64,000 nucleotides of DNA from an uncultured delta proteobacterium (GTDB lineage Bacteria; Desulfobacterota; Syntrophorhabdia; Syntrophorhabdales; WCHB1-27). Within the stretch, counting starts at the first letter, position 1; each line of letters opens with the position of its first letter. Shown here piece by piece: positions 1 to 19,892 of the stretch. Under the pieces are notes generated by a model, which made no database searches, was not told the origin of the DNA, and saw only the letters and a list, made by a program, of their open reading frames with translations. A program made the position numbers and the translations under genes. The stretch spans positions 140 through 64,139 of the forward strand of contig CAVVNC010000029.1 in assembly GCA_963749525.1 (NCBI GenBank), written 5' to 3'.

Positions 1-519
1 GGCTTGAGCAGCGATGTGTGGAAAATACTGACGCCCGCAGATTTCGAGGCTGCCTGCAAGAAGGACAAACTCGAGATCCGCAAGAACGACTGGGTGGTAG
101 TGGATACCGGGTTTCATCATTACTGGAGAAAGAACAACGACAAGTACTACAACTATTATCCCGGAATGGGCCCCGAAGTTGCAAAGTGGCTCATTCACGA
201 CAAGAAGATAAAGGGCATAACCGGCACCTGGGGCGCAACCGATTCTCCCCTTTGGCATTATCCTCTCAAAGAGCAGATGCCATGGCTCGATAAGGCGTAT
301 CGCCAGGCAACGGGCAACGACCCGGACAAGCTGTATCCCGACTATGAGCCGTGCCACCGTATGTTCATGCAGGCAGGCGTCGCAACAGTTGAGAACGCGG
401 GCGGCGATGTCGACGAGGTCGCAGGTAAACGTATGATTATTGCGGCATTCCCGTTCCGCTGCGAGATGGCCGACGGCGGCTTTGTGAGATTGGTTGCTTG
501 GGACGAAGGCTCTTTCTAA
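1..519 (+). CDS. putative-cyclase (kynurenine-formamidase-like fold) family protein, C-terminal part; 5' end outside window
   Basis: The frame-1 ORF is open from base 1 to the TAA at 517-519; the track start at 4 is only an internal TTG. VVVDTGFHHYW...GMGPEVAKWLI...GVATVENAGGDVDEV...IIAAFPFRCEMADGGFVRLVAW resembles the C-terminal half of cyclase-family hydrolases. The metal-binding HxGTHxD motif would lie upstream of the window, so the family call rests on recollection only. Confidence 0.5.
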   Translation, partial: GLSSDVWKILTPADFEAACKKDKLEIRKNDWVVVDTGFHHYWRKNNDKYYNYYPGMGPEVAKWLIHDKKIKGITGTWGATDSPLWHYPLKEQMPWLDKAYRQATGNDPDKLYPDYEPCHRMFMQAGVATVENAGGDVDEVAGKRMIIAAFPFRCEMADGGFVRLVAWDEGSF

Positions 520-922
520 GTTTCGTCTGAGCCGTTATTCTGACCCTTGTTAGAAAAAGGCGCCCTTTGCCCGGAAGCGCGAAAGACTCTCTTGGAGAGC
601 ATCAACGGGAGTCCGGGCAACGTCCCCGGTCAGGAGCCTGCCGTCCCTTTTGGCTCGCCGTAATGTTCGAGGCGGGAAAGTTCGCGCTGGAACAGTGCGG
701 CGAGCGGGGAAGGAGATCGTCTGTGGCGCTTTGAGACCGCGGGCCCTCTCGCTTGAGGAGCCGTGCGGGCATCCCGTTAAGATCGGCTGTGGACGAACCG
801 GCGCCTGCTATTCCTGTGCGGGTGTCCCGGTAGCTGCCGTATTTTCCTTTTCGTCGGGGGGAGGCTCGCCGGGCTTCCCCTGTTAGAGGGGGCGCGAACC
901 CCCATAATTGAAGGAGTGTGCC

Positions 923-1696
923 ATGAAAGATATGTTTCGGTTGGACGGTAAGGTAGCGGTTGTGGTCGGTGGAGCGGGCGGCATCGGAGAGTCGTGCGCA
1001 ATCGCCCTGGCGAGCCGTGGGGCGAAGGTTGTGGTTGCGGACCTCGCCGCTGCGTCTGAGAAGCTTGATGGCGTAGTCAAAAAAATTGCATCGGAAACGG
1101 GATCACAGGCCTCTGCGATGACGGTTGACGTGACCTCGGAAGAGAGCACCTCGAACCTCGCGGCGCAGGTTGTGCAGAAATACGGGACGGTCGATATCCT
1201 GGTCAATGCCCACGGAATCAATCTGAAAGTGGCCGCGGTCGACATCCCGGTTGCCGGCTGGGACAACCTTTTTGCCGTGAACGTGAAGGGTACGATGCTT
1301 ACCTGCAAGGCCTTCGGCAAGATCTTCGTCGAGAAGAAGAAAGGAAAGATCATCAACCTTTCGTCGATCCGCGGCATTAGAGGGACCGACGGCGGCAACG
1401 CGGTGTACGGAGCAACCAAAGGCGCGGTCGATATGATCACCCAGATGCTCGCGGCAGAATGGGCGCCGTATGGCGTCAATGTGAATGCCATCGGCCCTTC
1501 CGTGATCATGACGGACATGATAAAGAAGAACGTTGCCCCCGAGCGGCTCAAGATGCTCCTGTCGAAAGTGCCTTTGGGGCGTTTCGCGAATGTTGAGGAG
1601 GTCTCGGCCGTCTGCGTCTACCTCGCGTCCTCTGAAGCGGATTTTGTGACGGGTCAGATCCTCTACGTAGACGGGGGACTTACCGCTGTCGGATAG
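923..1696 (+). CDS. short-chain dehydrogenase/reductase (SDR) family oxidoreductase
   Basis: ATG 923 lies 7 nt after GAAGGAG (909-915). It has the Rossmann motif VVVGGAGGIG and the catalytic Ser...YGATK (YxxxK), typical of a classical SDR of about 257 aa. Confidence 0.85.
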   Translation: MKDMFRLDGKVAVVVGGAGGIGESCAIALASRGAKVVVADLAAASEKLDGVVKKIASETGSQASAMTVDVTSEESTSNLAAQVVQKYGTVDILVNAHGINLKVAAVDIPVAGWDNLFAVNVKGTMLTCKAFGKIFVEKKKGKIINLSSIRGIRGTDGGNAVYGATKGAVDMITQMLAAEWAPYGVNVNAIGPSVIMTDMIKKNVAPERLKMLLSKVPLGRFANVEEVSAVCVYLASSEADFVTGQILYVDGGLTAVG

Positions 1697-1725
1697 AGCC
1701 CGAAGGGAGAAAGGAGAATTCGCCT

Positions 1726-2671
1726 ATGAACAAAGATGATATCAAGAAAGTTGCGGTCATAGGGGCCGGGACAATGGGCCATGGCATAGCGCAATCCTTT
1801 GCTCAGGCGGGATACCAGGTATTCCTGATGGCAAGGAGAACGCAGTCTCTGGAGCGGGCCTCCGCGTTGATCAAGTCGAGTCTGGATTCCATGGCGCAGG
1901 CGGAGTATATTGACAGAAAGCGCATCCCTGAGATCTTAAGCCGGATAACGTATACCACGTCCCTCGAGGAAGCGGCCAAAGATGCCGATCTTGCCTTCGA
2001 GACCGTGGCCGAGGACAAGCAGGCGAAGATAGACACTTTTGCCCGCTTGGACGCACTGTGCCCTCCCCGGGCCCTGCTCGCGAGCAACACGACGTTCATG
2101 AATATCTTCGACTTCGTTGAAACGTCCCGTCCCGGAAAGGTGCTTATTGCCCACTGGTACTCCCCTCCCCAGATCATTCCCCTCGTCGATGTCGTGAAGG
2201 GACCCCAGACGGATCCGGCCAGCGTTCAGTTGATGGCCGAGGTGCTCAAAGGCGATCGGCAAGAAGCCGGTCGTCTTCAACAGGATGGTCTCCGGCTACG
2301 TGGTGAGCCGTCTTCAATTCGCCTTTCAGCGGGAGGTCCTCTGGCTTCTCGACAACGACTATCTGTCGCCGGAGGAGCTGGATGACGCGGCAAAATGGGG
2401 CCTTGCCATGCGCATGATGATCGTCGGAGTGGTTCAGCGCTTCGACTTCGGCGGGCTCGACTTGAGCGCTCGTAACCTGGAGAAGCCTTCTTTTCCACCG
2501 ACTCCGATCGAGTACATGCCGAAGAAGATCTTCGAGTTGGTGAAGGAGGGTCATCTGGGGGTCAAGTCGGGAAAGGGCTTTTACGATTACACAGGGAGAA
2601 GCGAGGCAGAGGTGTGCGCCGAGAGGGATACGAAGCTTCTCAAGTTGCTCAAGTTTCTCGAAAATCTCTAA
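1726..2671 (+). pseudogene. 3-hydroxyacyl-CoA (3-hydroxybutyryl-CoA) dehydrogenase family gene, interrupted by a +1 frameshift (or sequencing error)
   Basis: The N-terminal ORF 1726..2385 carries VAVIGAGTMGHGIAQ (NAD fold). The C-terminal ORF in frame 2 carries IGKKPVVFNRMVSGYVVSRLQ...GKGFYDY. The two join as ...AEVLK|AIGKKPVV if one G is removed at 2251-2252 (ctcaaaGGcgatc). Confidence 0.8.
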
Positions 2672-2696
2672 CTAAGGGTGTGATTGGGAGGAGAGG

Positions 2697-5221
2697 ATGT
2701 CCGAACAAGTTTTTACCAATTGTACTACCGAAGGCCCAATACAGGTGTATGTCCGTGACGGCAAGGTTGTCAGGATACGGCCTCTCGTTGCCGACGAGAA
2801 GGATTTCAAGCCCTGGACCATCGAGGCCGGAGGCAGAACATATACCCCCCCGACGAAATTCCATCTCGCCCCTTTTATCCATGCGGAGAGGATACGGCTC
2901 TATTCGGAAGACCGGATCAAGTATCCCATGAAGAGAAAGGACTTCGATCCGAAGGGCAAGAGGAACCAGGAGAAGAGAGGCATATCGGGGTATGAGCGCA
3001 TAAGCTGGGACGAGGCGCTCGACATCGTCTCAGGCGAGATCAAGCGCATCAGAGAAAAGCACGGCGGCGCTGCCATAACCGGGCTCACCTCTTCCCACCA
3101 CAACTGGGGAATAGTCGGCTACAAGATGGGGCCCTTTGCCCGCTTCATGGACATGCTGGAATACACGCCCGTCTTCGATAATCCCGACAGCTGGGAAGGC
3201 TGGCACTGGGGCGCGCCTCATACCTATGGGTTCTTCTGGCGGCTCGGCATGCCGGAGCAGTACGATCTCCTCCAGGACGTGCTGAAGAACACGGAGATGA
3301 TCGTATTATGGTCGAACGACCCTGACAGCACAAGGGCCATCTATTCTGCTCAGGATGCCGTGCAGTGGCGGCAGTGGCTGAAGGAAAAGGGGGTCAAGAT
3401 GGTCGTCATCGATCCCTTCTTCAACTACACCGCCGCCCACATGGACCACGCCAAGTGGTTCCCCTTGCGGCCCGATTCCGGCGCCGCCCTGGCCCAGGCC
3501 ATCGCATACGTGTGGATCACGGAAGAGACCTACGACAAGGATTATGTAGCCAAGAGAACCGTGGGCTTCGAGGAGTTCAAGAACCACATACTGGGCAAGG
3601 ATGACGGGATACCGAAGACTCCCGAGTGGGCTTCCGAGGAGTCGGCCATTCCCGCGAGAAGGATAAGGGCCCTCGCCAGGGAATGGGCTTCCAAGAGAAC
3701 GGTCCTTTCCGGGGGCACCCGGGGCGGCGAGGGAAGCGCCTGCCGGCAGGCCTATGCGACGGAATTGGCGAGGATGATGATCCTCCTCCAGGCGATGCAG
3801 GGTCTGGGCAAGCCCGGGGTAGCTATTTGGGGTACCACCATGGGCGCCCCTTCGAATACAACCATATTCTTTCCCGGATATGCCGATCCCGATTCACGGA
3901 TGGGCATGTCGCGCGCGGCAGACAGGAAGATGGCGACCCCCACCAAGCAGCGCCTCTACCGGATCACCCTGCCGGAGGCCATACTCAATCCCCCCATAGA
4001 ATGGGATGGCGAAGGGTTCTGCGGCCAGTCCATCGAGCAGCAGTTCACCCATTACGTCTATCCCATGGAGGGGTATCCCGAGGTGAAGATGTTCTACCGC
4101 TACGGGAGCAGCTTCATCGGGACCATGGTGGACACGAGCAAGTGGGTGCGCATGTACCAGAGCCCCAAGCTCGAGTTCGTGGTGAATCAGGACTGCTGGT
4201 GGGGCGGCGAGACGGGTTTTGCCGACATCGTTCTTCCGGCATGCACGAACCTCGAACGGGAAGACATATCGGAAGCGTGGACCTCCGGCGGGTACAGCAT
4301 GCACGGATGCAGCGGGAATAACTTCAGGGTTCTCGTGCGGATGAAGAAATGCATCGAGCCTCTCTGGGAATCAAAATCCGACTACGAGATATTCACCCTG
4401 ATCTCGGATAGGCTCGGCATGAAGGATATCTACACCGAGGGCAAGACCGACGTTGACTGGGCGAAGAGAGTTCTTCGAGCATATCGGACGCTCCCAAGCT
4501 TATCACCTGGGAGGAGCTCGAGAAGAAAGGCTATTACATCATCAACCCCGAAGAGGACCACAAGCCCACCCCCGCCCTGCGCTGGTTCGCCGAGGGACGC
4601 CCCTGCGACACCCCCGACCCGATGAACAAGAAGAGGGGCACTGACAAGGGCGATGAGCTGGGCACTTACAGCGGTAAGATCGAATTCGTCTCCCAGAGCC
4701 TTCTCAAGCAGTGGCCCGACGATGATGAGCGGCCGCCGCTCCCCCACCATATTCCGAGCTGGGAGGGGTACCGGAGCGAGCTCTACAAGAAGTATCCCCT
4801 TCAGCTCATCAGCCCCCATCCCCGGTTTTCATTTCATACCCACTATGACAAGCACACGAAATGGCTCAATGAGATACCCGGCTCACAGGATCATGAAAGA
4901 CGGATACGCCTGGTGGCCTGCCCGCGTCCATCCCCGGGACGCCAGGCCAGGGGAATCAAGAACAACGACATCATCAAGCTCTACAACGACCGGGGGGCGG
5001 TCCTCTGCATTGCGGTTATCACGGAGAGGGTGCTGCCGGGCATTATCCACAGCTATGCCTCTTCTGCCAACTACGATCCTCTCGAGCCGGGCAAGGCAAA
5101 ATCGATCGACCGGGGCGGGTGCGTGAACCTCCTCACGCCGTCGCGGATGGTGTCGAGACACGCGCCGGGCATGGCGCCCAATTCATGCCTCATCGAGATA
5201 GTGAAATGGGAGGAGGAGTAG
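2697..5221 (+). pseudogene. pyrogallol hydroxytransferase (transhydroxylase) large-subunit-like molybdopterin enzyme, four frameshifts
   Basis: It matches, along its whole length, my recollection of Pelobacter acidigallici AthL. Shared features: no N-terminal Cys cluster, no Tat signal, LTSSHHNWGIVGY (the Mo-ligand Ser region), NPDSWEGWHWG, ISPHPRFSFHT, DRGGCVNLLTP. The reading frame goes 3->1->2->3->2. There are extra bases near 4465 and 4486-4487 (restoring WAREFFEHIDAPKLITWEELEKKGYY), an extra T at 4883 and a missing A near 4944 (restoring IPGHRIMKDGYAWWPARVHPRDAKARGIKNND). Confidence 0.8.
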
Positions 5222-5223
5222 AG

Positions 5224-6157
5224 ATGGCCAGATACGGCATGCTCATCAATATCGACAAGTGCAACGGCTGCTACAATTGCTTCCTTGCCTGCAGGGATGA
5301 GTTTGAAGGCAATGACTACCCCCACTATTCCGCTGCCCAGCCCGCCGAAGGCAAGTCATGGATGAAGGTAACCGAAAAGGAGCGGGGATCGGTCCCCAAG
5401 GTAAAGGTCGATTATATACCAATGCCCTGTCTCCACTGCGCGGACGCGCCGTGCGTCAACAAGTCCATTGACAAGTCCGTCTACAGGCGGCCTGACGGCA
5501 TCGTCATCATCGATCCTGAAAAAGCGAAGGGCAAGAAGGATATTCTCGTCAATTGTCCCCACCGGGTCATCTACTGGAACGAAGAAAAGAACCTGCCCCA
5601 GAAGTGTACCTTCTGCGCCCACCTCCTCGATATGGGCTGGAAGGAGCCCCGCTGCGTCGAGGCGTGCCCGGATGAGGCGCTGGTGTTCGGAGACCTTGAC
5701 GATCCGGAAAGCGAGATCTCCCGGCTCATCGCTTCTTCCCCCACAGAAGAGCTTAACCCCGCCTTCGCCCTGAAGCCCAGTGTGAGATATATTGACCTGC
5801 CCAAGAGATTCATCGCAGGCGAGGTAGCGCTCGCAGACAAGCCGGGCGAATGTGGTGCCGCCATTACCGTGCAATTGAAGAACGGCGCCGCAACAATCGA
5901 ATGCAAGACGGACAGCTTCGGGGATTTCGAGTTCGACGGGCTAAAAACCTCGGAAACGTACGTGATACGCAGCCCAAAAGGATACAAGGCTGTGGAAAGC
6001 CGTGTACTTATGAGTAAAGTGGATGATAGAAAAAAATGCGATCGCCCATAAAGGATACAGGGCTGTGGAAATGCCTGTCGTCACTTACTCCGACGTAAAC
6101 GTGGGTGTCATCGAGCTAAAGCCGTCGAAGAAGCGGCAGCCCGCGACGAAGCAGTAA
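5224..6157 (+). pseudogene. pyrogallol hydroxytransferase small (beta, 3x[4Fe-4S] + C-terminal Ig-like domain) subunit-like; 3' end disrupted by a 73-bp insertion
   Basis: ATG 5224 follows GGGAGGAGGAG. MARYGMLINIDKCNGCYNCFLAC..., PCLHCADAPC and CTFCAHLLD...CVEACP are ferredoxin-type Cys motifs, as in Pelobacter BthL. The annotated ORF stops at 6051 after ...KGYKAVESRVLMSKVDDRKKCDRP*. The homologous C-terminus KGYRAVEMPVVTYSDVNVGVIELKP...* continues in frame 2 to the TAA at 6155-6157. Confidence 0.75.
5977..6122 (+). repeat. degenerate 73-bp tandem duplication of the beta-subunit 3' coding end
   Basis: aaaggatacaRggctgtggaaa occurs at 5977-5998 and again at 6050-6071 (1 mismatch). The rest of unit 1 (5999-6049, AT-rich) aligns as a decayed copy of unit 2 (acttatgag-taaagtgg vs acttactccgacgtaaacgtgg). 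The period is 73, not a multiple of 3. Confidence 0.6.
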
Positions 6158-6230
6158 GAGAGTAAGGGGGTTGGATTAACCTCCGATGAAGAATGACGAC
6201 GAATAGAGGAGCAGAGGTAGGAGGGAGAAA

Positions 6231-8435
6231 ATGAACGGACTGAAGAGATTCTTCCATCCCGAGTCCATTGCGGTAGTCGGTGCGTCTGAGGCATTGACTT
6301 CGTATGGCACCCGCTATATTCAGGCGCTCATCGACTTCGGCTTCGAGGGAAGAAGGATCTATGCGGTCAATCACAGCGGGAACGAGGTTCTCGGTCGCAA
6401 GATATACCGCTCGGTTCTCGAGATTCCGGAGAGCGTCGATCTGGTGTGCGTTTGCGTGGGAGCCCGCTTTGTCCCTGATATTTTGCGTGATTGTCTCAAG
6501 AAGGGCGTGAAGGCAGCGATCGTCCTCTCCGCCGGATTTCGCGAGTTCGGGGAAGAGGGGCGTATTCTTGAAGAGCAAGTAGCGGAGATAGCAAGGCAGG
6601 GCATCCGGGTGATGGGACCCAACTGTTTCGGGACGTATTGCCCGGCCGGAAAGATCACGGTCGTTCCCGGTGGGGGTTTTCCGAAGCAGTCCGGGGGTAC
6701 GGCGCTCATCGCGCAGAGCGGTCAGCTGTCAGAAGGCATCACCGGACGCTCTTTTGGAGAAGGCATCAGATACTCCAAAGTGGCGAGCTACGGCAATGCT
6801 TGCAACATTAACGAGGCCGATCTCCTTGAATATCTTATGGAAGACGGAGACACCAAGGTCATCGCCTCCTATCTGGAGGGAGTGAGGGACGGTAGAAGGT
6901 TTTTCGAGATAGCCCGCGCGAATGCGGGGAGGAAGCCTCTTCTGATCTGGAAAGTCGGTCTCACCAAGTCAGGGGCGGCCGCCGCCTCTTCACACACAGG
7001 CTCCCTCGCGGGCGCAACCGCGGTGTGGGATGCCTTTTTCCGGCAGACTCGCGCAACGAGGATAGGCGGCCTTGAGGAGTTGATAGATGCGATGGTCAGT
7101 TTCTCATGTCTGCCCGAGGGCTGCGGCCTCAGGGTCGCGCTCGTGAGTGGGGGCGGCGCAGGCGCCGTGATAGGTGCGGACGCATGCGAGGCATCGGGCA
7201 TGCAAATGCCTGTGCTCGGTCCTCAGACGATTGCGCGGCTTCATGAGGTACTTCCCCCGGTCGGCACGTCTCTCAAGAATCCCCTCGACATGGGTAACCC
7301 CCATCCGCCCTTGCAGGTCTTGAGGTCCGTTCTCGAGGCAGTGGCCGCAGACGACGCCGTCGATGTCGTGCTCATAAGACGCATATTCTTTTCAATAAAG
7401 ACGAGCAAGATATTCTCCGGCACTACATCTGCCACCGAGGAAGAGCAGGAAGAGCTGCTCCGGATACCCGTTGAAGTGATGAACAAATTCAAGAAGCCCG
7501 TGGTGATCATACTGCCCGACGAGCTTACCGGTCCGGAGAATATCGATTTGGAGGAAGACAGGCGGAAGATCCGTGACTACTTCTTCGCTCACAATATCCC
7601 GGTTTATCTCTCGGAGCTGAGGGCTTTCGCAGCCCTCTCCCGCCTCGCCGCCTTCAAAACAACGCGCGTCGAAGGCGCACGAACCGCTAAAGACAGGCCG
7701 GTCGAAGCGTCGCCAAAAGGCAGGGCCGTTTTTTCGGACATCGTCGAGGCATCGTCAACGACTATCCTCGATGAGCTGCAAAGCAAGAAAGTCATGAAGG
7801 AATACGGCATCGATGTGACGGAGCCTGTTCTGGCGGAATCAAAAAAAGCCGCCGTAGCAGCCGCTGAGAAGATCGGATACCCGGTGGTGATGAAGATAGT
7901 CTCCCCGCAGATTACCCACAAAAGCGACATCGGCGGAGTACAAGTCGGCCTCGCGACCAAAGGCGCTGTCTCGAGGGGCTACTCCGAGATCATGGCAGCA
8001 GCCTCTGCCAAGGCGCCGGGCGCTTCAGTCACCGGGGTGTCCGTTCAGAAGATGGCGCCCTCCGGCCTGGAGCTTGTGATCGGGATGAACAAGGATGCGC
8101 AGTTCGGACCGGTGCTGATGTTCGGCCTCGGGGGAACGCTGGTGGAGGTCCTCAAGGATGTCACATTCAGGATCGTGCCGCTCACGGGACAGGATGCGAA
8201 AGCAATGATCAAGGAGATAAGGGCCTATCGCCTTCTTGAGGGATACCGGGGGCAGCCTGCCGTGGACATTCGCCATCTCGAGGAATTGCTGCTCAAAGTC
8301 TCCGCAATGATAGAAGATAATCCCGAAATCAAGGAGATGGACATCAACCCGCTCATTGCTTACGAAAGCGGCGCTATTGCCGTCGACGCGAGAATCATTC
8401 TGGAAGAGGATGCAGTCAGAGCGTCGGGAAAATAA
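6231..8435 (+). CDS. acetate/acyl--CoA ligase (ADP-forming), fused alpha+beta domains (CoA-binding, ligase-CoA, ATP-grasp)
   Basis: 734-aa intact ORF with RBS GGAGGGA. The N-terminus FFHPESIAVVGAS (CoA-binding) is followed by MGPNCFG and a C-terminal ATP-grasp region (KKVMKEYGIDV...YPVVMKIVSPQITHKSDIGGV). Confidence 0.85.
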   Translation: MNGLKRFFHPESIAVVGASEALTSYGTRYIQALIDFGFEGRRIYAVNHSGNEVLGRKIYRSVLEIPESVDLVCVCVGARFVPDILRDCLKKGVKAAIVLSAGFREFGEEGRILEEQVAEIARQGIRVMGPNCFGTYCPAGKITVVPGGGFPKQSGGTALIAQSGQLSEGITGRSFGEGIRYSKVASYGNACNINEADLLEYLMEDGDTKVIASYLEGVRDGRRFFEIARANAGRKPLLIWKVGLTKSGAAAASSHTGSLAGATAVWDAFFRQTRATRIGGLEELIDAMVSFSCLPEGCGLRVALVSGGGAGAVIGADACEASGMQMPVLGPQTIARLHEVLPPVGTSLKNPLDMGNPHPPLQVLRSVLEAVAADDAVDVVLIRRIFFSIKTSKIFSGTTSATEEEQEELLRIPVEVMNKFKKPVVIILPDELTGPENIDLEEDRRKIRDYFFAHNIPVYLSELRAFAALSRLAAFKTTRVEGARTAKDRPVEASPKGRAVFSDIVEASSTTILDELQSKKVMKEYGIDVTEPVLAESKKAAVAAAEKIGYPVVMKIVSPQITHKSDIGGVQVGLATKGAVSRGYSEIMAAASAKAPGASVTGVSVQKMAPSGLELVIGMNKDAQFGPVLMFGLGGTLVEVLKDVTFRIVPLTGQDAKAMIKEIRAYRLLEGYRGQPAVDIRHLEELLLKVSAMIEDNPEIKEMDINPLIAYESGAIAVDARIILEEDAVRASGK

Positions 8436-8498
8436 CGGGACGGGGCCACATACTCAAGTGGCCTATAGGAAAGAGACAAACCAAAAAGGAGGAATGTC

Positions 8499-9338
8499 AT
8501 GAGAAAGGTCATAATTACCGTGTCATTGACGGGCGGCGTTCAGTCGAAGAAAGAGACCCCTTATCTGCCGGAACAGCCGGACGAGATCTCGGCCGACGCG
8601 TACGCCTGTTATAACGAGGGCGCTGCTGTTGCCCATATTCATGCACGGGACAAGAACGGCGCACCATCGGGTGATGTGGCGATATTCAAGGATATCCACG
8701 CAGCGATCCGGGCAAAATGCCCCATGATCATTCAGGATAGCACCGGCGGCGGCCCTGGTCTTACCTTCGAGCAGAGGCTCGAGTGCCTCGACGCGAAGCC
8801 CGAGATGGCATCGCTGAACATAGGCTCCATGCTGCGGACCATCGGCAAGACCGCCGGCACCACGTGGGCCAATCCCCGGCCGGAGCTCGAGAGGTTCGCT
8901 CAGGAGATGGCCAAGAAGGGCGTCAAGCCGGAGTTGGAGATCTACCACCACGGCATGATCAGGGAGATGAAGAACTTCATCGATAAGGGGCTCATCCAGA
9001 AGCCATACTATGTCAATCTCGTCATGGGCATGGCCTATCAGGGAGCAGTCGAAGCCTCGGCCGACAACCTTGTGACCCTTGTCCAGCTTCTGCCCCAGGG
9101 CACGATCTTCAACTGCTGTGCGGTCGGAAGGATGCAGGTTCCCATCACCACCATGGCGGTGCTCCTTGGCGGGCAGTGCAGGGTCGGCATGGAGGACAAC
9201 ATCTACATGTCCAAGGGGGTGCTCGCGAAGAACAATGCCGAGATGGTGGCGAAGAGCATCCGCATCATCAAAGACCTGGGCTTTGAGATAGCCTCACCGG
9301 AAGAAGCCAGGGAGATCATAGGACTGCCCAAACCGTGA
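8499..9338 (+). CDS. beta-keto acid cleavage enzyme (BKACE / DUF849, 3-keto-5-aminohexanoate cleavage enzyme family)
   Basis: RBS AAAGGAGG. IITVSLTGG...PYLPEQPDEIS...GAAVAHIHARD...GMEDNIY match the BKACE TIM-barrel Zn-site pattern (HxH...E). Confidence 0.8.
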   Translation: MRKVIITVSLTGGVQSKKETPYLPEQPDEISADAYACYNEGAAVAHIHARDKNGAPSGDVAIFKDIHAAIRAKCPMIIQDSTGGGPGLTFEQRLECLDAKPEMASLNIGSMLRTIGKTAGTTWANPRPELERFAQEMAKKGVKPELEIYHHGMIREMKNFIDKGLIQKPYYVNLVMGMAYQGAVEASADNLVTLVQLLPQGTIFNCCAVGRMQVPITTMAVLLGGQCRVGMEDNIYMSKGVLAKNNAEMVAKSIRIIKDLGFEIASPEEAREIIGLPKP

Positions 9339-9654
9339 GGACTGACGAGCAGGCATAGGAGAGCCGGGCGCTAAAAGACGACATCCGCGCTCCCTGGTCG
9401 TGAGGCCCGAGAGTCCTGACCTTACCGGCCGTCAGCATAGGGGCTCGTATTTGTTGACAAGGGGACGTCGCTCCTATACGCTTTTTGCGGTAGTAGCCGA
9501 TAGTCGGGACTTTCAGGCTTGCTGAAAAACGAAGGCAGCCCGGACCGGCAAGGGTCTTTTCCGGACGGTTCAGGAACCGTCTGGAAGAGACCCGCTGCTT
9601 CGTTTGATTCGAATGGTTTGCCTTCGCGGCAAACGTCGAAAAAGGAGGAAATCC

Positions 9655-10888
9655 ATGAAAACAAAGAGCATCTTTCTGTCGCTCGCCATCTTGCTCGTCG
9701 CAGTGTTTTTGCTCTCTCCGGCCTATGCGCAGGAGGGGACGAAGGCAATGAAGAGCGTGAAGATCGGCGTCATCAGTCCCTTGAGCGGCCCCTTACTTTC
9801 ATAGGGACGAGCATGCTCCGGTGCGTCCAGTTGGCGGTCAAGGACATCAACGAGAGGGGAACCACGGGAAACGGACCGGGGCTCCTTGTCGGCGGCCAGC
9901 GCTACAAGCTGGAGATCGTCAATTATGATGATTCCGCGGACCCCTCCAAGAGCGTGGCCGGCATGAGGAAGCTCGCCGAAATGTATAGCGTGCCTGTGGT
10001 TCTCGGGCCCCTTTGGCACGCCCCAGGTCTGGGCCACTCAAGAGGTCAACGTGGGGCTCAAGGTCCTTTACAACGGTCTTTCGACCTCTGATCAATCCCG
10101 CAAGAAGGGCAATCCCCTCTACATTCAGGAGCGCGTGCCCGGCATGTACTACGGGGATGCCATGGCCGAAGTGGCCGATCGAGAAAGGATACAAGAAGGC
10201 AGCCGTGCTCACCGACATCAATGAAGCTTACGTGTCGTGGGGCAAGAGGTTCGGTCAGAAGCTCGCAAGCCTCGGCGGGCAGGTTGTCGCATTTGAAAGC
10301 GTCGACATCAAGAACACGACCGATTACCACTCCATCATGACAAGCTTCAAGGCGAAGAACCCGGACATCATATTCGTCGCCACCTATGAGGAGCCCACGG
10401 CGCTGGCCGTCAACCACGCCCTCGATGTCGGCTTACAAGGGCAAGTTCATGGTCACGTCTGACTGGGGGATCAAGTCGGAGAAGATCGTCGGTCTCGACA
10501 GGATGGAGGGCTCGATGTCCAGGCGATGGTGCACACGTACTACAGAAAGTATCCCGATCAGGACAAGAGAGGGTACGCGACCGCCTTCATGAAGAAGTAC
10601 CAGGAAACGTACAAGGAAGATTTCGCGCAGCCCGGTCTCTCGGTCTACGATCCTGCTTGGATGTTCGCTCGGGCAATGGAGATCGCCGGCAGCGTCACCG
10701 ATGCCTATGCCATCCGCGCTGCCTGCCCCAAGGCGCTGGAAGAGGGCAAGCTGCCGATCATCTTCCCCAACAACGACGTGCTGAAGAACGGACTGATGGT
10801 GGGCGCTCCCGAGTTGATCCTGGAGGTGAAGGGCGGCCAGTATAAGCTCGTGAAGGAAATCAGGGTGCCGAAGAATATTCTCGAGTAG
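9655..10888 (+). pseudogene. branched-chain-amino-acid-type (LivK-like) ABC substrate-binding protein, five frameshifts
   Basis: ATG 9655 follows AAAGGAGG, and there is a signal peptide (MKTKSIFLSLAILLVAVFLLSPAYAQE). The protein-like sequence hops frames 1->3->1->2->3->2 at about 9789-9792 (C-run), 10008-10011, 10177, 10433-10434 and 10516-10517. The rejoined text reads ...ISPLSGPLTFIGTSMLR...VVLGPFGTPQVWATQEVN...EVAIEKGYKKAAVL...LDVGYKGKFMVTSDW...VQAMVHTYYRKYP... Confidence 0.8.
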
Positions 10889-10930
10889 TTCAGGCACCGC
10901 AAGAATCGAGAGTAGGCCGGGGGTTAGCTT

Positions 10931-11803
10931 TTGGTCGAGTTGGCTCAGTACCTGTTGAACGGGATCTCCCAGGGGTGCGTCTACGTGCTCCTGGCATCGG
11001 GTCTCACGATAATATTCGGTATCCTGAACGTGCCCAACTTTGCCCAGGGGCACCTCTACATGGTCGCCGCATACCTGGGCTTTTACATGGTAATGTCCTA
11101 CTCGACCAACTACTGGCTTGCCCTCGTGCTCGCCACGTTCGCCCTCGGGATTCTGGGGCTGCTCGTCTATTTCCTCGTCTTCTACCCCATAAGGAACGCG
11201 CCCGAGGTCAACCTCTTTGTAGCTGCCATGGCGCTCCTCATGATCCTCGAAGGGGGAGCGCTCTTTCTCTTCGGAACGGAAACGAAATGGTTCCTCATCC
11301 CGTGGAGCCGGAGCGTCCTGTCAGTGGGGAGTCTGTCGCTCCAGGTGCAGCGCGTGATCGTCATCGTCGGCACGACCGTCGTAATGTTCTTGCTCTGGTT
11401 CTTCATCAAGAGAACTGCCCTCGGTGCCGCACTCGAGGCAACGGCGCAGCACAGGGAGGGCGCGCTGCTCTGCGGAATCAAGGTGAGCCGCATTTCCGCC
11501 ATGGCCTTTGTCGTGGGCACGGCCCTTGCCGGGATCGCGGGGGTCCTTATCGGTCCTGCCGTGCTCCTTGAGCCCACCATGGGCATGGGGCCGCTCCTCG
11601 TGGCATTCTCCGCCATAATTTTCGGCGGGCTGGGCAGCATAGCAGGGGCAGTGGTCGGCAGTCTCATCCTCGGGGTGGTGGAGAGTCTGGCATCCGGGTA
11701 CATCAGCGCCATATACAGCCTCGCTTTTGTCTTCGCCATCATGATCGTCATGCTTCTGTTCCGTCCAAAAGGGCTGTTCGGCAAGGAGGTCTGGAGGCCT
11801 TGA
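10931..11803 (+). CDS. branched-chain amino acid ABC transporter permease (LivH-like)
   Basis: Intact 290-aa multi-TM ORF with an apparent TTG start. The N-terminus LAQYLLNGISQGCVYVLLASGLTIIFG is typical of the LivH family. Confidence 0.85.
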   Translation: MVELAQYLLNGISQGCVYVLLASGLTIIFGILNVPNFAQGHLYMVAAYLGFYMVMSYSTNYWLALVLATFALGILGLLVYFLVFYPIRNAPEVNLFVAAMALLMILEGGALFLFGTETKWFLIPWSRSVLSVGSLSLQVQRVIVIVGTTVVMFLLWFFIKRTALGAALEATAQHREGALLCGIKVSRISAMAFVVGTALAGIAGVLIGPAVLLEPTMGMGPLLVAFSAIIFGGLGSIAGAVVGSLILGVVESLASGYISAIYSLAFVFAIMIVMLLFRPKGLFGKEVWRP

Positions 11804-12798
11804 AGAGCATCTTTTCTCCGGTACGGACAGCCTGGCTCCTGGCCCTGATTGTTGCCGTACTCCTCCCCCTCTTTGTGGGGGGATACCTGACGAGCATTCT
11901 TCTCCTCATCGCCATCTGGGCGATCGTGGCCGTGAGCCTCAACCTGCTTTACGGGTACACAGGGCAGCTCTCGCTGGGCCACTCTGCCTTTCTCGGGATA
12001 GGCGCCTATGCATGTGGCATCATCGCGGTTAAGCTCCACGTCGGTTTCTGGCCGGCGTTTTTTGCCGCAATCGCGATCAGCGGCCTCTTCGGGTTCCTGA
12101 TCGGCATACCTGCACTCAAGCTGCGGGGGCCCTACTTTGTGCTGGTGACCCTCGGTTTCGCGGCTATCGTAGGCGTGATCGTGCTCGGGTGGACCCAGCT
12201 CACCGGCGGCGCCAACGGTCTTGCCGGCGTGCCGAGGCCCAACCCCATCCCTCTTCCTTTTGGCCGCACGCTGCGCTTTGATTCGCTCCTCGCCATGTAT
12301 TACTTCACTCTCTTTTTCCTCATAGTGATAGCCTTGATATGTCACCGCCTCGTGCGCTCGCTGCTCGGGCGGACATTCGTCGCCATCTCGCACGATGAAG
12401 ATCTGGCTGAATCGCTGGGCATCAACACCATGCAGAAGAAGCTGATCAGCTTCACGATCAGCGCCCTTTTCTCCGGCGTGGCAGGCGCCCTCTATGCGTC
12501 GTACAACTCGGTGATAAGCCCGGACATCGCCTATTTTGCGCGCGGCATGGACGTCCTGGCCTGCTTGATCGTGGGCGGCGCAGGGACCATGGCGGGGCCG
12601 ATCATCGGCACATTCGTCATGACGGCCATACCCGAGGCACTGCAGATCGTGCCCACCCTCAGAACGCTCATCAACGGCTTCATATTGTTGATTTTTATCA
12701 TCTTCCTGCCGACCGGTATCGCGGGCGGATTCAAAGCCCTCTTTTCGCGACGGGGCCATTCATTGAGATCAGGGATGGGGCGCAATGGCGTTGCTTGA
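11800..12798 (+). CDS. branched-chain amino acid ABC transporter permease (LivM-like)
   Basis: TTG 11800 overlaps the livH-like stop (tTGA) and lies 10 nt after AAGGAGG. YGYTGQLSLGHSAFLGIGAY is the LivM signature region. Confidence 0.85.
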   Translation: MKSIFSPVRTAWLLALIVAVLLPLFVGGYLTSILLLIAIWAIVAVSLNLLYGYTGQLSLGHSAFLGIGAYACGIIAVKLHVGFWPAFFAAIAISGLFGFLIGIPALKLRGPYFVLVTLGFAAIVGVIVLGWTQLTGGANGLAGVPRPNPIPLPFGRTLRFDSLLAMYYFTLFFLIVIALICHRLVRSLLGRTFVAISHDEDLAESLGINTMQKKLISFTISALFSGVAGALYASYNSVISPDIAYFARGMDVLACLIVGGAGTMAGPIIGTFVMTAIPEALQIVPTLRTLINGFILLIFIIFLPTGIAGGFKALFSRRGHSLRSGMGRNGVA

Positions 12799-13555
12799 GG
12801 TTTCGGGCTTGGTCAAGACGTTCGGCGGGCTCACCGCGGTGAGCAGGCTCAACTTCAGCGTGGAACAGGGTCGGCTCGTGAGCATCATCGGGCCCAATGG
12901 GGCGGGGAAGACCACGCTCTTCAATCTCCTCACGGGAATCTACCGGCCCACCGCGGGCAAGGTCGTATTTGACGGCAATGACATTACCGGGTGCAAACCC
13001 TACGAGTCAGCCGCGCCGCGGCATGGGGCGGACGTTCCAGAAGACCACTGTTTTCCGAAGCGAGACCGTGCTGGACAACGTGATCATCGGCCAATCCGTT
13101 CATCTGAAAACGGGTGTCTGGGGGGCAATAGCGCGAACGGCCGGGGCGCGGCGCGAGGAGGAGAAAGTCCGGAAGAAGGCGCGCTCGGTCCTCGAGTTTG
13201 TCGGGTCTGGCGAACATGGAAGAGAGGCACGGCCGGTAGTCTGACGGAAGAGGCGCAGAAAAGGCTGTCCATAGCGATGGTTCTCGCCCCGGACCCGAAG
13301 CTGCTGCTCCTTGACGAGCCGACGGGCGGCGTCAACCTCGAAGAGATCGGCGGTCTCATCGAGCTGGTCAAGAAGATTCAGGAGTCGGGCATCACTGTCT
13401 GTCTCATCGAGCATAAGATGCGCATGGTGATGAGCATGTCGGACCGCATCATCGTTCTCAATTATGGGACCAACATCGCAGAAGGCACGCCGGCTGAAGT
13501 GGCGAGCAACAAAGAGGTGATCGAAGCTTACCTGGGGGCGCGACGTGTTGCTTAG
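12785..13555 (+). pseudogene. ABC transporter ATP-binding protein (LivG-like) with three +1 insertions that together restore the frame
   Basis: Walker A GPNGAGKTT and the C-terminal LLLLDEPTGG are in one frame. The middle part (RGMGRTFQKTTVFRSETVLDNV...LEFVG / LANMEERH / AGSLTEEAQKRL) lies in the other two frames. The extra bases are at about 13016-13017 (c), 13203-13205 (g) and 13231-13232 (g). Confidence 0.8.
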
Positions 13556-14256
13556 CGTGGATGCAATACAGACCCGCTACGGAACGTTCCAGGCCCTTCG
13601 GGACGTATCGCTTGAAGTCGACGCCGGGGAAGTGGTGACGATCCTCGGAGCAAACGGTTCCGGGAAGACGACGCTGCTGAGGACCATATCGGGCCTCGTC
13701 TCGCCTGCCTCCGGAAGCATTCAATTCAACGGGGAACGGCTCGACAGGGTCGCGCCTGACGCCATCGTCAAGCTCGGGATCTCCCTTTGTCCGGAAGGAA
13801 GGATGCTTTTCCCGGAGATGTCCGTGCAGAAGAATCTGGAGCTGGGTGCGTACGTGCACAGGAAGAAAGGCTAGCCTCGTCGAAGAGGCGAAGGACGAAG
13901 TGTACGGGCTTTTTCCCCGGCTCAAGGAGAGGCGGAAACAGGCTGCGGGCACCATGTCCGGCGGCGAGCAGCAGATGCTGGCCATAGGAAGGGCGCTCAT
14001 GTCGAGGCCGCGGCTCCTCATGCTCGATGAACCCTCCCTCGGCCTTGCCCCGCTGGTGGTGATGAATATCATGGATACCCTTCTCGAGATCAAGAAGCGG
14101 AAGACGTCAATCCTTCTCGTTGAGCAGAATGCCGCCGAATCGCTGAGAATTGCCGACCGCGGCTACGTGCTCGAAACCGGAAAGGTCGTCCTGTCAGGGG
14201 ACAGAGAGAGCCTGATGAACGACGAGAAAGTCAAGCAATCCTACCTGGGCACGTAA
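13545..14256 (+). pseudogene. ABC transporter ATP-binding protein (LivF-like), one +1 frameshift
   Basis: GTG start. Walker A GANGSGKTT is in ORF 13545..13874; [14 protein letters not shown] and [13 protein letters not shown] are in ORF 13846..14256. Removing one g at 13869-13870 (aagaaaGGct) gives ...[23 protein letters not shown]... Confidence 0.8.
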
Positions 14257-17389: not shown

Positions 17390-17894
17390 TTACCCCCACG
17401 CTCTCCGTCCGGCGGGCATGAGAAAGAGAAGAGGAATGGAGACCACAAACGTGAGACCCAAGACGATGAAGACAATCGTGAAGCCGGAGGTGAGGTCATG
17501 GCTCACGTGAAGGATGAAGGTGACCAGCGAGATGCCGAGGGCGGCGCCGACATTCCTGAACATGTTTCTGAGCCCGACGACTGTCCCCACCTTCTCGGGC
17601 ATCAATTCTATGCAGGCGTTGTTAGAAGCGGGGAAAACCATTCCTCCGGCGATTCCGTTCACGAAGAGGAGGATTGAAAGCATTCCTACGGTCCCCATCC
17701 GGAAGCCCGAGGCACCCCACATGAGCAGTCCCGGCGCCTGCAGAATGGTCGTGATGGCGATGAAGACGAAACCGAGCACCATGGGCCAGCGGTAACCCCA
17801 TCTTCGCAGAAGGAAAGCCGTGACGGTGGCTGCTCCAGCCATCGCAACGGAGCGTGGGGTGAGAATCACTCCGCTCATCAGGGTGGAGAGCTTA
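17390..17894 (-). pseudogene. MFS transporter, C-terminal fragment (gene split by IS630 insertion)
   Basis: The TM-rich ORF ...KLSTLMSGVILTPRSVAMAGAATVTAFLL... continues the N-terminal fragment at 19022..19892 once the IS is removed. Confidence 0.75.
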
Positions 17895-17896
17895 TA

Positions 17897-18454
17897 CTAA
17901 GTTGCCATCTTAATACCACTTATGATCCAGTCGAACCCGGTGAGTCCGGCAACCTTTTCAGAGCTGCGCTCCAGTGTGGCCAGGGCTTCCATGAGCATGT
18001 CTTCCACGGCGGTAATGTTCCTAAAGACAAGATTTGGGAACCACTTTTCTCTGATCTCCTCCCAAAGGTGTTCCGCGGGATTCAGCTCAGGGCTGTAGGG
18101 AGGCAAGTTGAGTAGCCGTATGTTGGGGGGAATGACGAGAGCCCTGGCTTTGTGCCAGCCGGCCTGATCCATGAACATAAGGATCGTTTCATCGGGATGT
18201 CTTTCGGAGACGACGGAGAGGAACAGTGACATCGAGTCCGTATCGACGTCGGGAAGGATAAGAGAATCGAGCACGCCGTCAAGAGGGCTTGCCGCTCCGT
18301 AGGCATAGGTATATTCCCGGACAAGCTGGAGGGGTACTGCGGGCCTTACCCCCTTTGGCGCCCAGCAGCATCGCGGGTCACTGATCCGGCCGAAACGCGC
18401 CTCGTCCTCGAACATGATCCGTATCCTCGTACTGTCTCCGGCAGCCTCTTTCAC
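17897..18454 (-). CDS. IS630-family transposase, DDE catalytic part (orfB)
   Basis: IMFEDEARFG...FMDQAGWHK...LPPYSPELNPAEHLWEEIR is the DDE_3/IS630 signature (D...D...E region). Confidence 0.8.
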   Translation of the reverse strand: MKEAAGDSTRIRIMFEDEARFGRISDPRCCWAPKGVRPAVPLQLVREYTYAYGAASPLDGVLDSLILPDVDTDSMSLFLSVVSERHPDETILMFMDQAGWHKARALVIPPNIRLLNLPPYSPELNPAEHLWEEIREKWFPNLVFRNITAVEDMLMEALATLERSSEKVAGLTGFDWIISGIKMAT

Positions 18455-18951
18455 TACTTCGGAGAATTTTTTTTAAACTCCTCTTGAAGGAGCACATCCG
18501 CTTTCGGATGGTGAGGGCGGGGAGTGATCTTTCTCCACCCGTGACGGGCGAGCATTCGATAGATTGTTGATTTTGGCACGGCGTGTTCCACGGCTTTTTC
18601 ATAGGCCCTTTTGACCTCACCTACCATGAGGATCTCCCCCCTGGCCGCCTTCTCGAGAAAGGACGAAAGAAAAGCATGTTCCTCATCCGCCGTCATATTC
18701 GCCCGATACCTGCCGCCACGCCTGGACGCCCGAAGCGCCTCTTCACCCTCCTTAAGATACTGGGCTTGGAGATGACGGACCGAGCTTGTATGCCAACCTA
18801 TGGCGACGGCGACGTCATGGGACGACAGCGCTAGAGACGCCCGTAGCCATAGACACTGCACCCTCTGGAATTGCGTCTTTGTTTTCACCTTCTTCAGCAA
18901 CTGCCCCAAAGACTCTTTGGAACCCGGTGGCAAGGGTGCGGGTCTTCTCAT
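18454..18951 (-). CDS. IS630-family transposase, N-terminal HTH part (orfA)
   Basis: Helix-turn-helix-like N-terminal domain. It ends ...LLQEEFKKNSPK* just after an A8 run (T8 on the + strand, 18467-18474). A -1 shift there reads on as ...KKFSEVVKEAAGDSTRIRIMFEDE into orfB. Confidence 0.75.
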   Translation of the reverse strand: MRRPAPLPPGSKESLGQLLKKVKTKTQFQRVQCLWLRASLALSSHDVAVAIGWHTSSVRHLQAQYLKEGEEALRASRRGGRYRANMTADEEHAFLSSFLEKAARGEILMVGEVKRAYEKAVEHAVPKSTIYRMLARHGWRKITPRPHHPKADVLLQEEFKKNSPK

Positions 18952-19021
18952 AGGACCTCCTGAAGGAGAAATAGACTTCAGGAGTCATTCTATCATTAGT
19001 GCTTAATAGATAGCAACTACG

Positions 19022-19892
19022 TATTACAGACCGATATCACGTAGAGCGGTACGAACGAAAAGGCGCCCATCATCGTCATGCCCACCACCAGATTCACTAG
19101 GTTTGCCGCCACGAACGGGGCTGACTCGAGCAGGGCAAGGTCGAGGATCGGCTGGACTGTCCGCCTTTCCTGCCGGAGAAAGAGGGCAGTGAGCGACAGG
19201 CTGACCGAGACGGCGAGCGCGGCAAGAAGGATCGAGCGGGTGGAGAGGCTCTCGCCTGCGAGATTGAGGCCGAACATGAGGAGGAGGAGCGACCCGCTCA
19301 GGAGCCCGACCCCGGCGAAATCGAAAGGGGCACGAGAGGAAGTCCTGGAGTCCTTCAGGAGGAAGCTGCCTGATGCCATCAAGAGAACGCCGATCGGTAC
19401 ATTGATGTAGAAGATGTAGCGCCAGGAATACTGGCTCACGATCCAGCCCCCCAGGTTTGGCCCCAGAACGGCGCCAATACTGAAAATGCTGGAAAACAGG
19501 CCGATGGCAGCCTCTCGGTTCTTGGGGAATTGATCGCTCACGATCCCCGACGCCGTGGGAATAAAGCAGGCGCCTCCGATGCCCTGAAGGAACCTGAAGG
19601 CTATGAGGGCATGGATAGTCGGCGCAAGGCCGCACGCGAGGGAACTGCCGGTGAAGAGCGCGAGAGAGGCGAGGAAGACCTTCTTGCGCCCGTAACTGTC
19701 ACCCAGATTTCCCGCCAGCGGTACGGTCATGGTGACGGCGATGAAAAAGATCGAGATGGTCCATGCAGACCAGAGTACATTCGAATGCAGCTCCCTCGTG
19801 AAGCTGGGGAATGCGACCGCTACCACCGTGGCGTCGATCGCATACATCAGAAGGCTCAGACTGGTGGTAACAAAAACGAGATAAGGGCGCAT
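19022..19892 (-). pseudogene. MFS transporter (DHA-type), N-terminal fragment
   Basis: MRPYLVFVTTSLSLLMYAIDATVVAVAFPS...GDSYGRKKVFL...FRFLQGIGGA are MFS motifs. The ORF runs into the IS and stops 3 codons inside it. Confidence 0.75.

Follow-up and report, generated by a model that had tools for sequence, protein, structure and literature searches.

In the present study, a cluster of seven genes was analysed at the start of a 64,000-nucleotide stretch of DNA (hereafter, the window) from an uncultured delta proteobacterium of the Syntrophorhabdales (Desulfobacterota; assembly GCA_963749525.1, contig CAVVNC010000029.1). These genes probably encode a route from pyrogallol and phloroglucinol to acetyl-CoA, in which ATP formation is linked to an ADP-forming acyl-CoA synthetase (ACD) and the enzymes belong to divergent subfamilies. 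In order, the cluster comprises the 3' part of a cyclase-family hydrolase gene and the genes for a short-chain dehydrogenase/reductase (SDR), a 3-hydroxyacyl-CoA-dehydrogenase-family protein (HADH), the large (alpha) and small (beta) subunits of a molybdenum/iron-sulfur enzyme, the ACD, and a BKACE-family enzyme. All seven are co-directional on the + strand, located where the original prediction had placed them and, according to Pfam, members of the families it had named (Table 1). The Pfam E-values range from 1e-13 to 1e-92, and thus the seven family assignments are not due to chance. The prediction had not noted that three of them, the HADH, alpha, and beta genes, are not continuous open reading frames (ORFs) in the deposited sequence.

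The first 9.3 kb of the window makes up the last two-thirds, on the downstream side, of a Syntrophorhabdales catabolic island, which most likely ferments or oxidises trihydroxybenzenes. Two sister contigs, L001 (ENA ERZ25039512) and L164 (ENA ERZ25039471), share approximately 95% nucleotide identity and the same gene order with the window, and the order in L164 is FmdE-alpha2-beta2-GntR-cyclase-SDR-HADH-alpha-beta-ACD-BKACE-transporter. In close relatives (L164, 1101-6245; L001, 42-5183; L086 and L093), an FmdE-like protein, a second AthL-like pair, and a GntR regulator are encoded just upstream of the position at which the window starts. The DnaE protein of the window is 98-99% identical to proteins of Syntrophorhabdales metagenome-assembled genomes (MAGs).

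Herein, we propose a sequence of reactions for this cluster, with each substrate and reaction inferred from the observed family membership, diagnostic residues, and conserved synteny. First, the cytoplasmic alpha-beta enzyme would convert pyrogallol to phloroglucinol through hydroxyl transfer. Second, the SDR would form dihydrophloroglucinol from phloroglucinol, and the metal-dependent cyclase-family hydrolase would open the ring to yield 3-hydroxy-5-oxohexanoate. Third, the HADH-family enzyme, acting on the free acid, would produce triacetate by oxidation, which BKACE would cleave with acetyl-CoA to yield acetoacetate and acetoacetyl-CoA. The ACD would generate ATP from acetyl-CoA and, in reverse, may activate acetoacetate; the thiolase step would be encoded elsewhere in the genome. 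The four downstream families equal the set that yields acetoacetate and acetoacetyl-CoA from phloroglucinol in Clostridium scatologenes, as shown by Zhou et al. 2023 (PMC10470551): PGR is an SDR, DPGC a Mn enzyme of the cyclase family, TfD a dehydrogenase of the HADH family, and TAL a BKACE. This correspondence, which implies the same order of chemistry, supports the phloroglucinol reading. The pathway is largely supported, resting on context more than on close similarity.

The molybdenum/iron-sulfur enzyme and its substrate

The use of pyrogallol has long been inferred in MAG studies from AthLS homologues alone (e.g. PMC3971608). In a PDB search, the N-terminal 590 aa of alpha scored 606 bits to AthL (4v4c_A), the large subunit of the Pelobacter acidigallici transhydroxylase, versus approximately 208 bits to DMSO reductase, and an intact orthologue of alpha scored 863 bits to AthL, the best solved relative by far; beta scored 208 bits to the small subunit BthL (4v4c_B). 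The corrected proteins are 47.7% (alpha) and 40.9% (beta) identical to AthL and BthL. The close resemblance to AthL/BthL named in the original prediction amounts to these identities. The two systems (PDB 4V4C/4V4D/4V4E for AthL/BthL) share a Mo-bisMGD large subunit with an AhtL-like N-terminal domain, a small subunit carrying three 4-Cys motifs as well as a beta-sandwich at its C-terminus, and the absence of a Tat leader, but the window alpha is 35 residues shorter (840 vs 875). The alpha protein begins with MSEQVFTNCTTEGP and has no twin-arginine leader; a stop codon precedes its ATG by 21 nt. It contains the SSHH motif, which includes His144, and Ser175 within PDSWEGW. The beta protein carries 12 Cys in three cluster motifs, followed by an Ig-like tail (CarboxypepD_reg) that is observed in the intact orthologues. 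The absence of a Tat signal, the SSHH motif, and the layout of beta had all been correctly predicted.

The alpha protein keeps His144, Asp174, Ser175, Trp176, Tyr404, Phe468, and Tyr560 of AthL. We take Ser175 to be the Mo ligand of AthL and His144, Asp174, and Tyr404 to be catalytic residues, roles that were reportedly described by Messerschmidt et al. in 2004. A scan of species-representative genomes revealed at least 545 relatives, and the best 80 of these loci belong to Desulfobacterota, SAR324, Actinomycetota, Dehalococcoidia, Alphaproteobacteria, and Lachnospiraceae. A clade of 840-aa proteins (85 members) is 57-97% identical to the window alpha, and His144, Asp174, Ser175, and Tyr404 are kept in 83-85 of its 85 members; Trp176, Phe468, and Tyr560 are likewise conserved in the clade. 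Two positions differ from AthL, with Lys in place of Arg153 in the window alpha and 64/85 clade members and Glu in place of Trp354 in the window alpha and 65/85. Because AthL is equidistant from all 85 members (46-51% identity), it represents a sister lineage and is not nested within this clade.

The sister position of AthL, the low identity to the whole 840-aa clade, and the Lys and Glu residues at two pocket positions would be compatible with a different substrate. The downstream genes would then still encode a phloroglucinol pathway, fed by a Mo enzyme with a different polyhydroxybenzene as its substrate, for example through hydroxyhydroquinone/tetrahydroxybenzene interconversion, as is known from Pelobacter massiliensis, or through water-dependent hydroxylation like that of resorcinol hydroxylase. 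An alpha2-beta2 pair is located upstream in the sister contigs, and alpha2 was also found close to alpha in 14 of the 48 species-representative genome loci (at least 12 kb in length) surveyed for neighbours within 10 kb; such a pair would likewise fit multi-enzyme hydroxyl-shuffling. RhL and PgtL belong to a single family, a branch of Ser-ligated MopB enzymes (PMC10100899). Despite these points, we consider another substrate unlikely. The four key residues listed above are kept in alpha, whereas the alpha2 paralogues (873-890 aa, approximately 35% identity) lack both SSHH and Tyr404; the cluster contains no respiratory electron-acceptor partner for a hydroxylase; and the cluster of a rumen Lachnospiraceae (L073) fits the known physiology of pyrogallol/gallate fermenters (PMC10470551). 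The resorcinol hydroxylase RhLS of Aromatoleum (Azoarcus) anaerobium shares the RhL/PgtL branch (PMC10100899) and differs by inferred context, as the window has no hydroxyhydroquinone dehydrogenase genes and instead carries the phloroglucinol-type downstream module. Thus, pyrogallol-phloroglucinol transhydroxylation is the preferred reading for alpha-beta, and the alpha2-beta2 pair may be a second hydroxyl-transfer or hydroxylating enzyme.

The downstream module and its conservation

For comparison with the clostridial enzymes, the CsDPGC and CsTfD sequences were rebuilt from the alignments printed in the supplement of PMC10470551. The cyclase fragment of the window is 92% identical to a full-length 295-aa cyclase in locus L002, and cyclases of this type are 28% identical to CsDPGC and lack its insert of approximately 45 residues. 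The His and Glu metal ligands (EPCH...VEN) are located within the window part, and full-length orthologues show HxGTHxDAPxH together with the WP-motif Trp, with Phe in place of DPGC Tyr22. Thus, the metal ligands (HxxxHxD, His, and Glu) and the Trp20 pocket residue of DPGC are conserved, the N-terminal part being read from the orthologue. At E <= 1e-20, this compact cyclase family numbers 207 proteins; those listed are mostly 295-302 aa in length, and their annotations go no further than cyclase or kynurenine formamidase. No NCBIfam model matched the cyclase. A test of length only revealed no entry of 294-297 or 299-302 aa among the 524 DPGCs in Data set S3 of Zhou et al.

The HADH protein is 32% identical to CsTfD and 33% identical to Hbd of the butyryl-CoA pathway. 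It lacks the CoA-contact residues Lys56 (Tyr) and Asn221 (Ala), as does CsTfD, carries the 3-residue insert of TfDs, and keeps the catalytic His (IAHWY). In contrast to CsTfD, the stereo-recognition residues Ser117 and Asn188 are replaced with Thr and Ser; this Thr/Ser pair co-varies and is common to 13 sequences (the window and 12 loci), whereas a Firmicutes subgroup keeps Ser/Asn. The original prediction of a match to the clostridial phloroglucinol enzymes was therefore upheld for the four families (PMC10470551), but not for close similarity, as the identities are 28-33%.

The SDR contains the GGAGGIG, NLSS, and YGATK (YxxxK) motifs of classical SDRs. Asp40 at the end of beta2 (VVVAD) indicates an NAD type, according to a sequence heuristic by which most SDRs of related clusters are NADP-type (ASR), and sets the window apart from the C. 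scatologenes cluster; HADH has the NADP-type signature ARR after beta2. The SDR had been predicted to be an NADPH-dependent phloroglucinol reductase; the family assignment stands, and as to the cofactor, this heuristic would predict NAD(H). In the SDR subclade of the window, the Ala-Ser-Arg of the SDRs in L013-L073 is replaced by Ala-Asp, and both SDR and HADH are NAD-type in L093. The best PDB matches of the SDR are gluconate-5-dehydrogenase-like SDRs, and 5g4k, which we take to be the PGR of Clostridium, is not among its top 60; for the SDR of the Lachnospiraceae cluster, 5g4k ranks fifth (142 bits).

The BKACE enzyme keeps the Zn ligands His46, His48, and Glu230 and has Val14 at the position of Glu14 in Kce, where CsTAL has Trp; the fold, the ligands, and the non-acidic residue at position 14 are those of a TAL. 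The score against the NCBIfam TAL model (NF053538) is 219.6 bits, below the cut-off of 430, as is that of the BKACE in the Lachnospiraceae cluster (142.6). Kce is the best PDB match (176 bits), and the Kce model (NF052387) is the best NCBIfam match, with 288 bits against a cut-off of 382. Kce shares the BKACE TIM-barrel family and the Zn ligands, but its Glu14 binds the 5-amino group of the substrate. A role as Kce in lysine fermentation, beside kam and kdd genes, had been named in the original prediction as the counter-case; this role was ruled out, as position 14 is Val, the score is below the cut-off, and the window contains no kamA, kamDE, or kdd neighbours.

The ACD has the domains of its family and the phosphohistidine-type motif SHTGSLAG. 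With ADP-forming acetyl-CoA synthetases, it shares the set of CoA_binding, Succ_CoA_lig, and ATP-grasp_5 domains and the SHTGS motif, and differs as a fused single chain. The NCBIfam models for the acetate, 4-hydroxybutyrate, and 3-hydroxypropionate enzymes have equivalog cut-offs of 1200-1300 bits, and the ACD scores of 516, 495, and 455 bits fall far short of these, so that the models do not fix its acyl substrate.

The synteny of these genes is strong. In the 48 alpha-anchored loci, SDR was the commonest neighbour of alpha-beta (16/48), and thiolase (12/48), a small cupin (10/48), ACD, either fused or split (8/48), BKACE (8/48), cyclase (7/48), and HADH (7/48) were also observed. Among the Desulfobacterota, L002 and L013 contained at least three of the four core families, as did L041 of the Dehalococcoidales and the rumen Lachnospiraceae loci L064 and L073. 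The order in L013 is alpha-beta-ACD(beta)-BKACE-HADH-thiolase-SDR, and L016 has a split ACD; in L073, the order is alpha-beta-thiolase-SDR-cyclase-HADH-BKACE-Ptb-Buk, in which Ptb and Buk are phosphate butyryltransferase and butyrate kinase. From their positions, ACD in Desulfobacterota and Ptb-Buk in Lachnospiraceae appear to fill one functional slot, which supports an ATP-yielding end step, and the predicted link between alpha-beta and an ATP-yielding ACD thus recurs. A second set comprised 40 metagenome loci (at least 8 kb) with the window-type cyclase as the anchor; the adjacent genes were HADH in 31/40, BKACE in 27/40, SDR in 19/40, thiolase in 13/40, and alpha in 7/40. These counts indicate that the ordered triad cyclase-HADH-BKACE is a conserved module, with the transhydroxylase as an optional front end. 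The synteny check suggested in the original prediction therefore revealed conservation across phyla from both anchors.

In Desulfobacterota and SAR324, alpha-beta has its most stereotyped neighbour in a Cupin_2 protein (approximately 110 aa) followed by an SDR; the Cupin_2 gene lies just downstream of beta in L014, L016, L018, L020, L022, L023, L024, L031, and L047 and is missing from the window.

The C. scatologenes cluster thus shares with the window the cyclase ligands and Trp, an HADH without Lys56/Asn221, and a BKACE with the Zn ligands and no Glu14. It differs in that thiolase, CtfAB, and Pta-Ack/Ptb-Buk are present there, whereas the transhydroxylase and ACD are linked here. The low identity to characterised enzymes, a cyclase subfamily of 295-302 aa with no length-matched entry among the catalogued DPGCs, and the Kce model as the best NCBIfam match of BKACE might instead suggest that the substrate of the SDR/cyclase/HADH/BKACE module is a different beta-keto acid or cyclic 1,3-dione and that the module has no more than a loose link to the Mo enzyme, with Kce as the extreme case. 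We regard this as very improbable, since the cyclase-HADH-BKACE order mirrors DPGC-TfD-TAL, the module repeatedly co-occurs with a phloroglucinol-producing enzyme type in three phyla, and the Val14 and the missing kam and kdd genes speak against Kce.

Several of these results nevertheless weigh against the proposed route from pyrogallol to acetyl-CoA. First, the identity of alpha to AthL is only 47.7%, AthL is a sister lineage rather than an orthologue nested within the clade, and resorcinol hydroxylase is of the same RhL/PgtL family. Second, cyclase and HADH are just 28-33% identical to CsDPGC/CsTfD, with HADH equally close to Hbd; 5g4k is missing from the top SDR matches; and the NCBIfam equivalog cut-offs for the TAL, Kce, ACD, and HADH models are not reached. 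Third, with an NAD-type SDR and an NADP-type HADH, the cofactor loop of P. acidigallici may not close. Fourth, no thiolase or CoA transferase was found within the 64-kb window, leaving acetoacetyl-CoA cleavage and acetoacetate activation unaccounted for. The description of the pathway as complete in the original prediction was therefore overstated, as the cyclase gene is also cut by the window edge and the island continues upstream (L164).

Broken reading frames in the deposited sequence

The lesions were located using the ORF list, three-frame translation, and alignment to L001 and L164. The HADH gene carries one +1 insertion near 2251, and the alpha gene carries +1 insertions near 4466, 4479, and 4877 and a -1 deletion near 4942. 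In the beta gene, a 70-nt insertion consists of a degenerate copy of the next 45 nt and approximately 25 extra bases, and six gaps, seven bases in total, distinguish this duplicate from the true segment. Thus, neither alpha, with four indels, nor beta, with this insertion, has an intact reading frame as deposited. After correction of the lesions, alpha comprises 840 aa and shows 97.3% identity to P0001, and taking out the 70 nt restores a beta of 287 aa. Outside the seven genes, the gene for the transporter binding protein (9650-10888) extends over three frames and that for the LivF ATPase (13545-14256) over two; both are unbroken in L164 and L002, and the split pattern in the window resembles the indels of the catabolic genes.

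Long-read assembly errors, and not gene decay, very likely account for the breaks in the genes for HADH, alpha, beta, the binding protein, and LivF, and the 70-nt insertion in beta is probably an assembly artefact. Wherever the window is broken, L001 and L164 are intact, and they carry private frameshifts elsewhere, in the cyclase of L001 and the BKACE of L164 (one extra base); the second beta subunit of L001 is also split. Consensus errors are indicated because each assembly has its own private frameshifts, two of the alpha insertions are only 13 nt apart, and the duplicate in beta is riddled with indels.

Some observations point instead to true decay of the cluster and the transporter, with a pathway that is non-functional in this organism. 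At least nine frame disruptions cluster between 1.7 and 14.3 kb, whereas approximately 12 kb of long ORFs elsewhere, including dnaE and two genes of approximately 1400 codons, is intact; genuine insertion sequence (IS) elements are close by, as an MFS transporter gene (17.4-19.9 kb) is apparently split by a DDE_3 element and an IS110 transposase lies at 25.8 kb; and the deposited public record carries the truncated ORFs. We judge decay to be distinctly unlikely. The dN/dS values between the window and L001 are 0.07-0.11, with no difference between the broken HADH, alpha, and beta genes and the intact SDR gene, and independent assemblies of relatives with approximately 95% identity each show different private frameshifts. 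These assemblies use contig_ names, a style that we take to be typical of long-read assemblers, and the close-set indels and the 45-nt duplicate resemble consensus errors. Assembly error thus remains the preferred explanation, and caution is required, as indels mimicking pseudogenes are frequent in the contigs of this assembly and the contig_-named assemblies of relatives.

Within LivG, three +1 differences from L164 were observed at 13014-13231 of the window, yet both ORFs are open; in one or the other assembly, approximately 70 codons are probably shifted locally out of frame.

Layout of the window and meaning of the cluster

The features of the window are collected in Table 1. The original prediction had placed the genes in one operon, but the 403-nt gap after the cyclase gene is possibly a transcription-unit boundary. 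When the intergenic gaps were scanned for promoters, terminators, and inverted repeats, no signal exceeded that of shuffled sequences, and a tRNA scan of the window found zero.

Table 1. Positions of the catabolic genes, the transporter, and other features within the 64-kb window
Feature	Coordinates	Strand	Family matches and state	Candidate role
Cyclase-family hydrolase, 3' part (172 codons)	1-519	+	PF04199, 2.6e-13; 5' third beyond the window start	Candidate dihydrophloroglucinol cyclohydrolase
Non-coding gap between cyclase and SDR, 403 nt	520-922		No ORF with family matches; several indels relative to L001 and L164	
Classical SDR, 257 aa	923-1696	+	adh_short_C2, 8.5e-62; intact	Candidate phloroglucinol reductase
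HADH, 314 aa after correction	1726-2671	+	3HCDH_N and 3HCDH on two ORFs	Candidate 3-hydroxy-5-oxohexanoate dehydrogenase
Mo-bisMGD large subunit (alpha), AthL-like, 840 aa after correction	2697-5221	+	PF21423 (AhtL-like_1st), PF00384 (Molybdopterin), PF01568 (Molydop_binding)	
Fe-S small subunit (beta), BthL-like, 287 aa after correction	5224-6157	+	Fer4_11; three 4-Cys motifs, C-terminal beta-sandwich	
70-nt insertion within the beta gene	5972-6041	+	Not in L001 or L164	
Fused alpha-beta ACD, 734 aa	6231-8435	+	PF13380 (CoA_binding_2), PF13607 (Succ_CoA_lig), PF13549 (ATP-grasp_5); intact	Candidate ATP-yielding step
BKACE-family enzyme, 279 aa	8499-9338	+	PF05853, 3.5e-92; intact	Candidate triacetate acetoacetate-lyase
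Liv-type ABC transporter (binding protein, two permeases, two ATPases)	9650-14256	+	Peripla_BP_6 over three frames, ABC_tran over two ORFs	Candidate substrate uptake
MFS transporter, C-terminal fragment	17390-17896	-		
DDE_3 transposase	17897-18454	-	IS630-like	
MFS transporter, N-terminal part	19017-19892	-		
Zn-dependent alcohol dehydrogenase	20269-21375			
Aldo/keto reductase with ferredoxin tail	21559-22605			
Second molybdopterin oxidoreductase, 725 aa	22743-24920	-	N-terminal Fe4S4 domain	
IS110-family transposase	25754-27112	-	DEDD_Tnp_IS110 and Transposase_20	
Giant BcrAD_BadFG/DUF2229 fusion, 1447 aa	29671-34014	-	'CoA enzyme activase'	
388-aa ORF	35757-36923		No Pfam match	
Giant BcrAD_BadFG/DUF2229 fusion, 1388 aa	50392-54558	+	'CoA enzyme activase'	
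DnaE	57.7-61.2 kb			

Beyond the cluster, an MFS gene (17390-19892) is apparently split by the DDE_3 transposase, and the IS110-family transposase marks the edge of a stretch of lower guanine-plus-cytosine (GC) content (0.51-0.52 at 26-30 kb vs approximately 0.58). A second molybdopterin oxidoreductase, unrelated to alpha, adjoins the Zn-dependent alcohol dehydrogenase and the aldo/keto reductase. One of the two BcrAD_BadFG/DUF2229 fusions has an extra HGD-D dehydratase-like segment, and the region of 35-43 kb has a lower GC content (0.52-0.56) and few coding-like ORFs.

Syntrophorhabdales are known as syntrophic degraders that use the benzoyl-CoA pathway. The biochemistry of trihydroxybenzene fermentation has been known since 1990-92, and to our knowledge, the downstream genes have never been identified in Pelobacter. 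These genes were identified in 2023, for Clostridia-type enzymes only (PMC10470551), and the literature searched contained no paper naming both Syntrophorhabd* and phloroglucinol. The present cluster suggests candidate genes for a Gram-negative version of the pathway, as a second, divergent set of enzymes that is physically linked to the transhydroxylase and an ATP-forming ACD and occurs in Desulfobacterota, Dehalococcoidia, and Lachnospiraceae. Tentatively, and as a picture that we hold to be possible rather than probable, a Desulfobacterota-type trihydroxybenzene fermentation might combine the 295-302-aa cyclases as dihydrophloroglucinol hydrolases, ACD-coupled ATP formation, and a multi-transhydroxylase funnel of alpha2-beta2 and FmdE, degrading aromatics without benzoyl-CoA.

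If this were true, several consequences would follow. The cyclase subfamily, which is probably missed by current polyphenol-annotation schemes, would be widespread in gut, rumen, and sediment metagenomes and overlooked by CsDPGC-based surveys, and the multi-transhydroxylase system would funnel tri- and tetrahydroxybenzenes (e.g. hydroxyhydroquinone, as in P. massiliensis) into phloroglucinol. Provided that the assignments hold, annotation based on C. scatologenes under-counts the anaerobic degraders of phloroglucinol and pyrogallol in peat, sediment, rumen, and gut. Moreover, syntrophic Syntrophorhabdales would be capable of degrading aromatics without benzoyl-CoA and would gain a fermentable polyphenol substrate.

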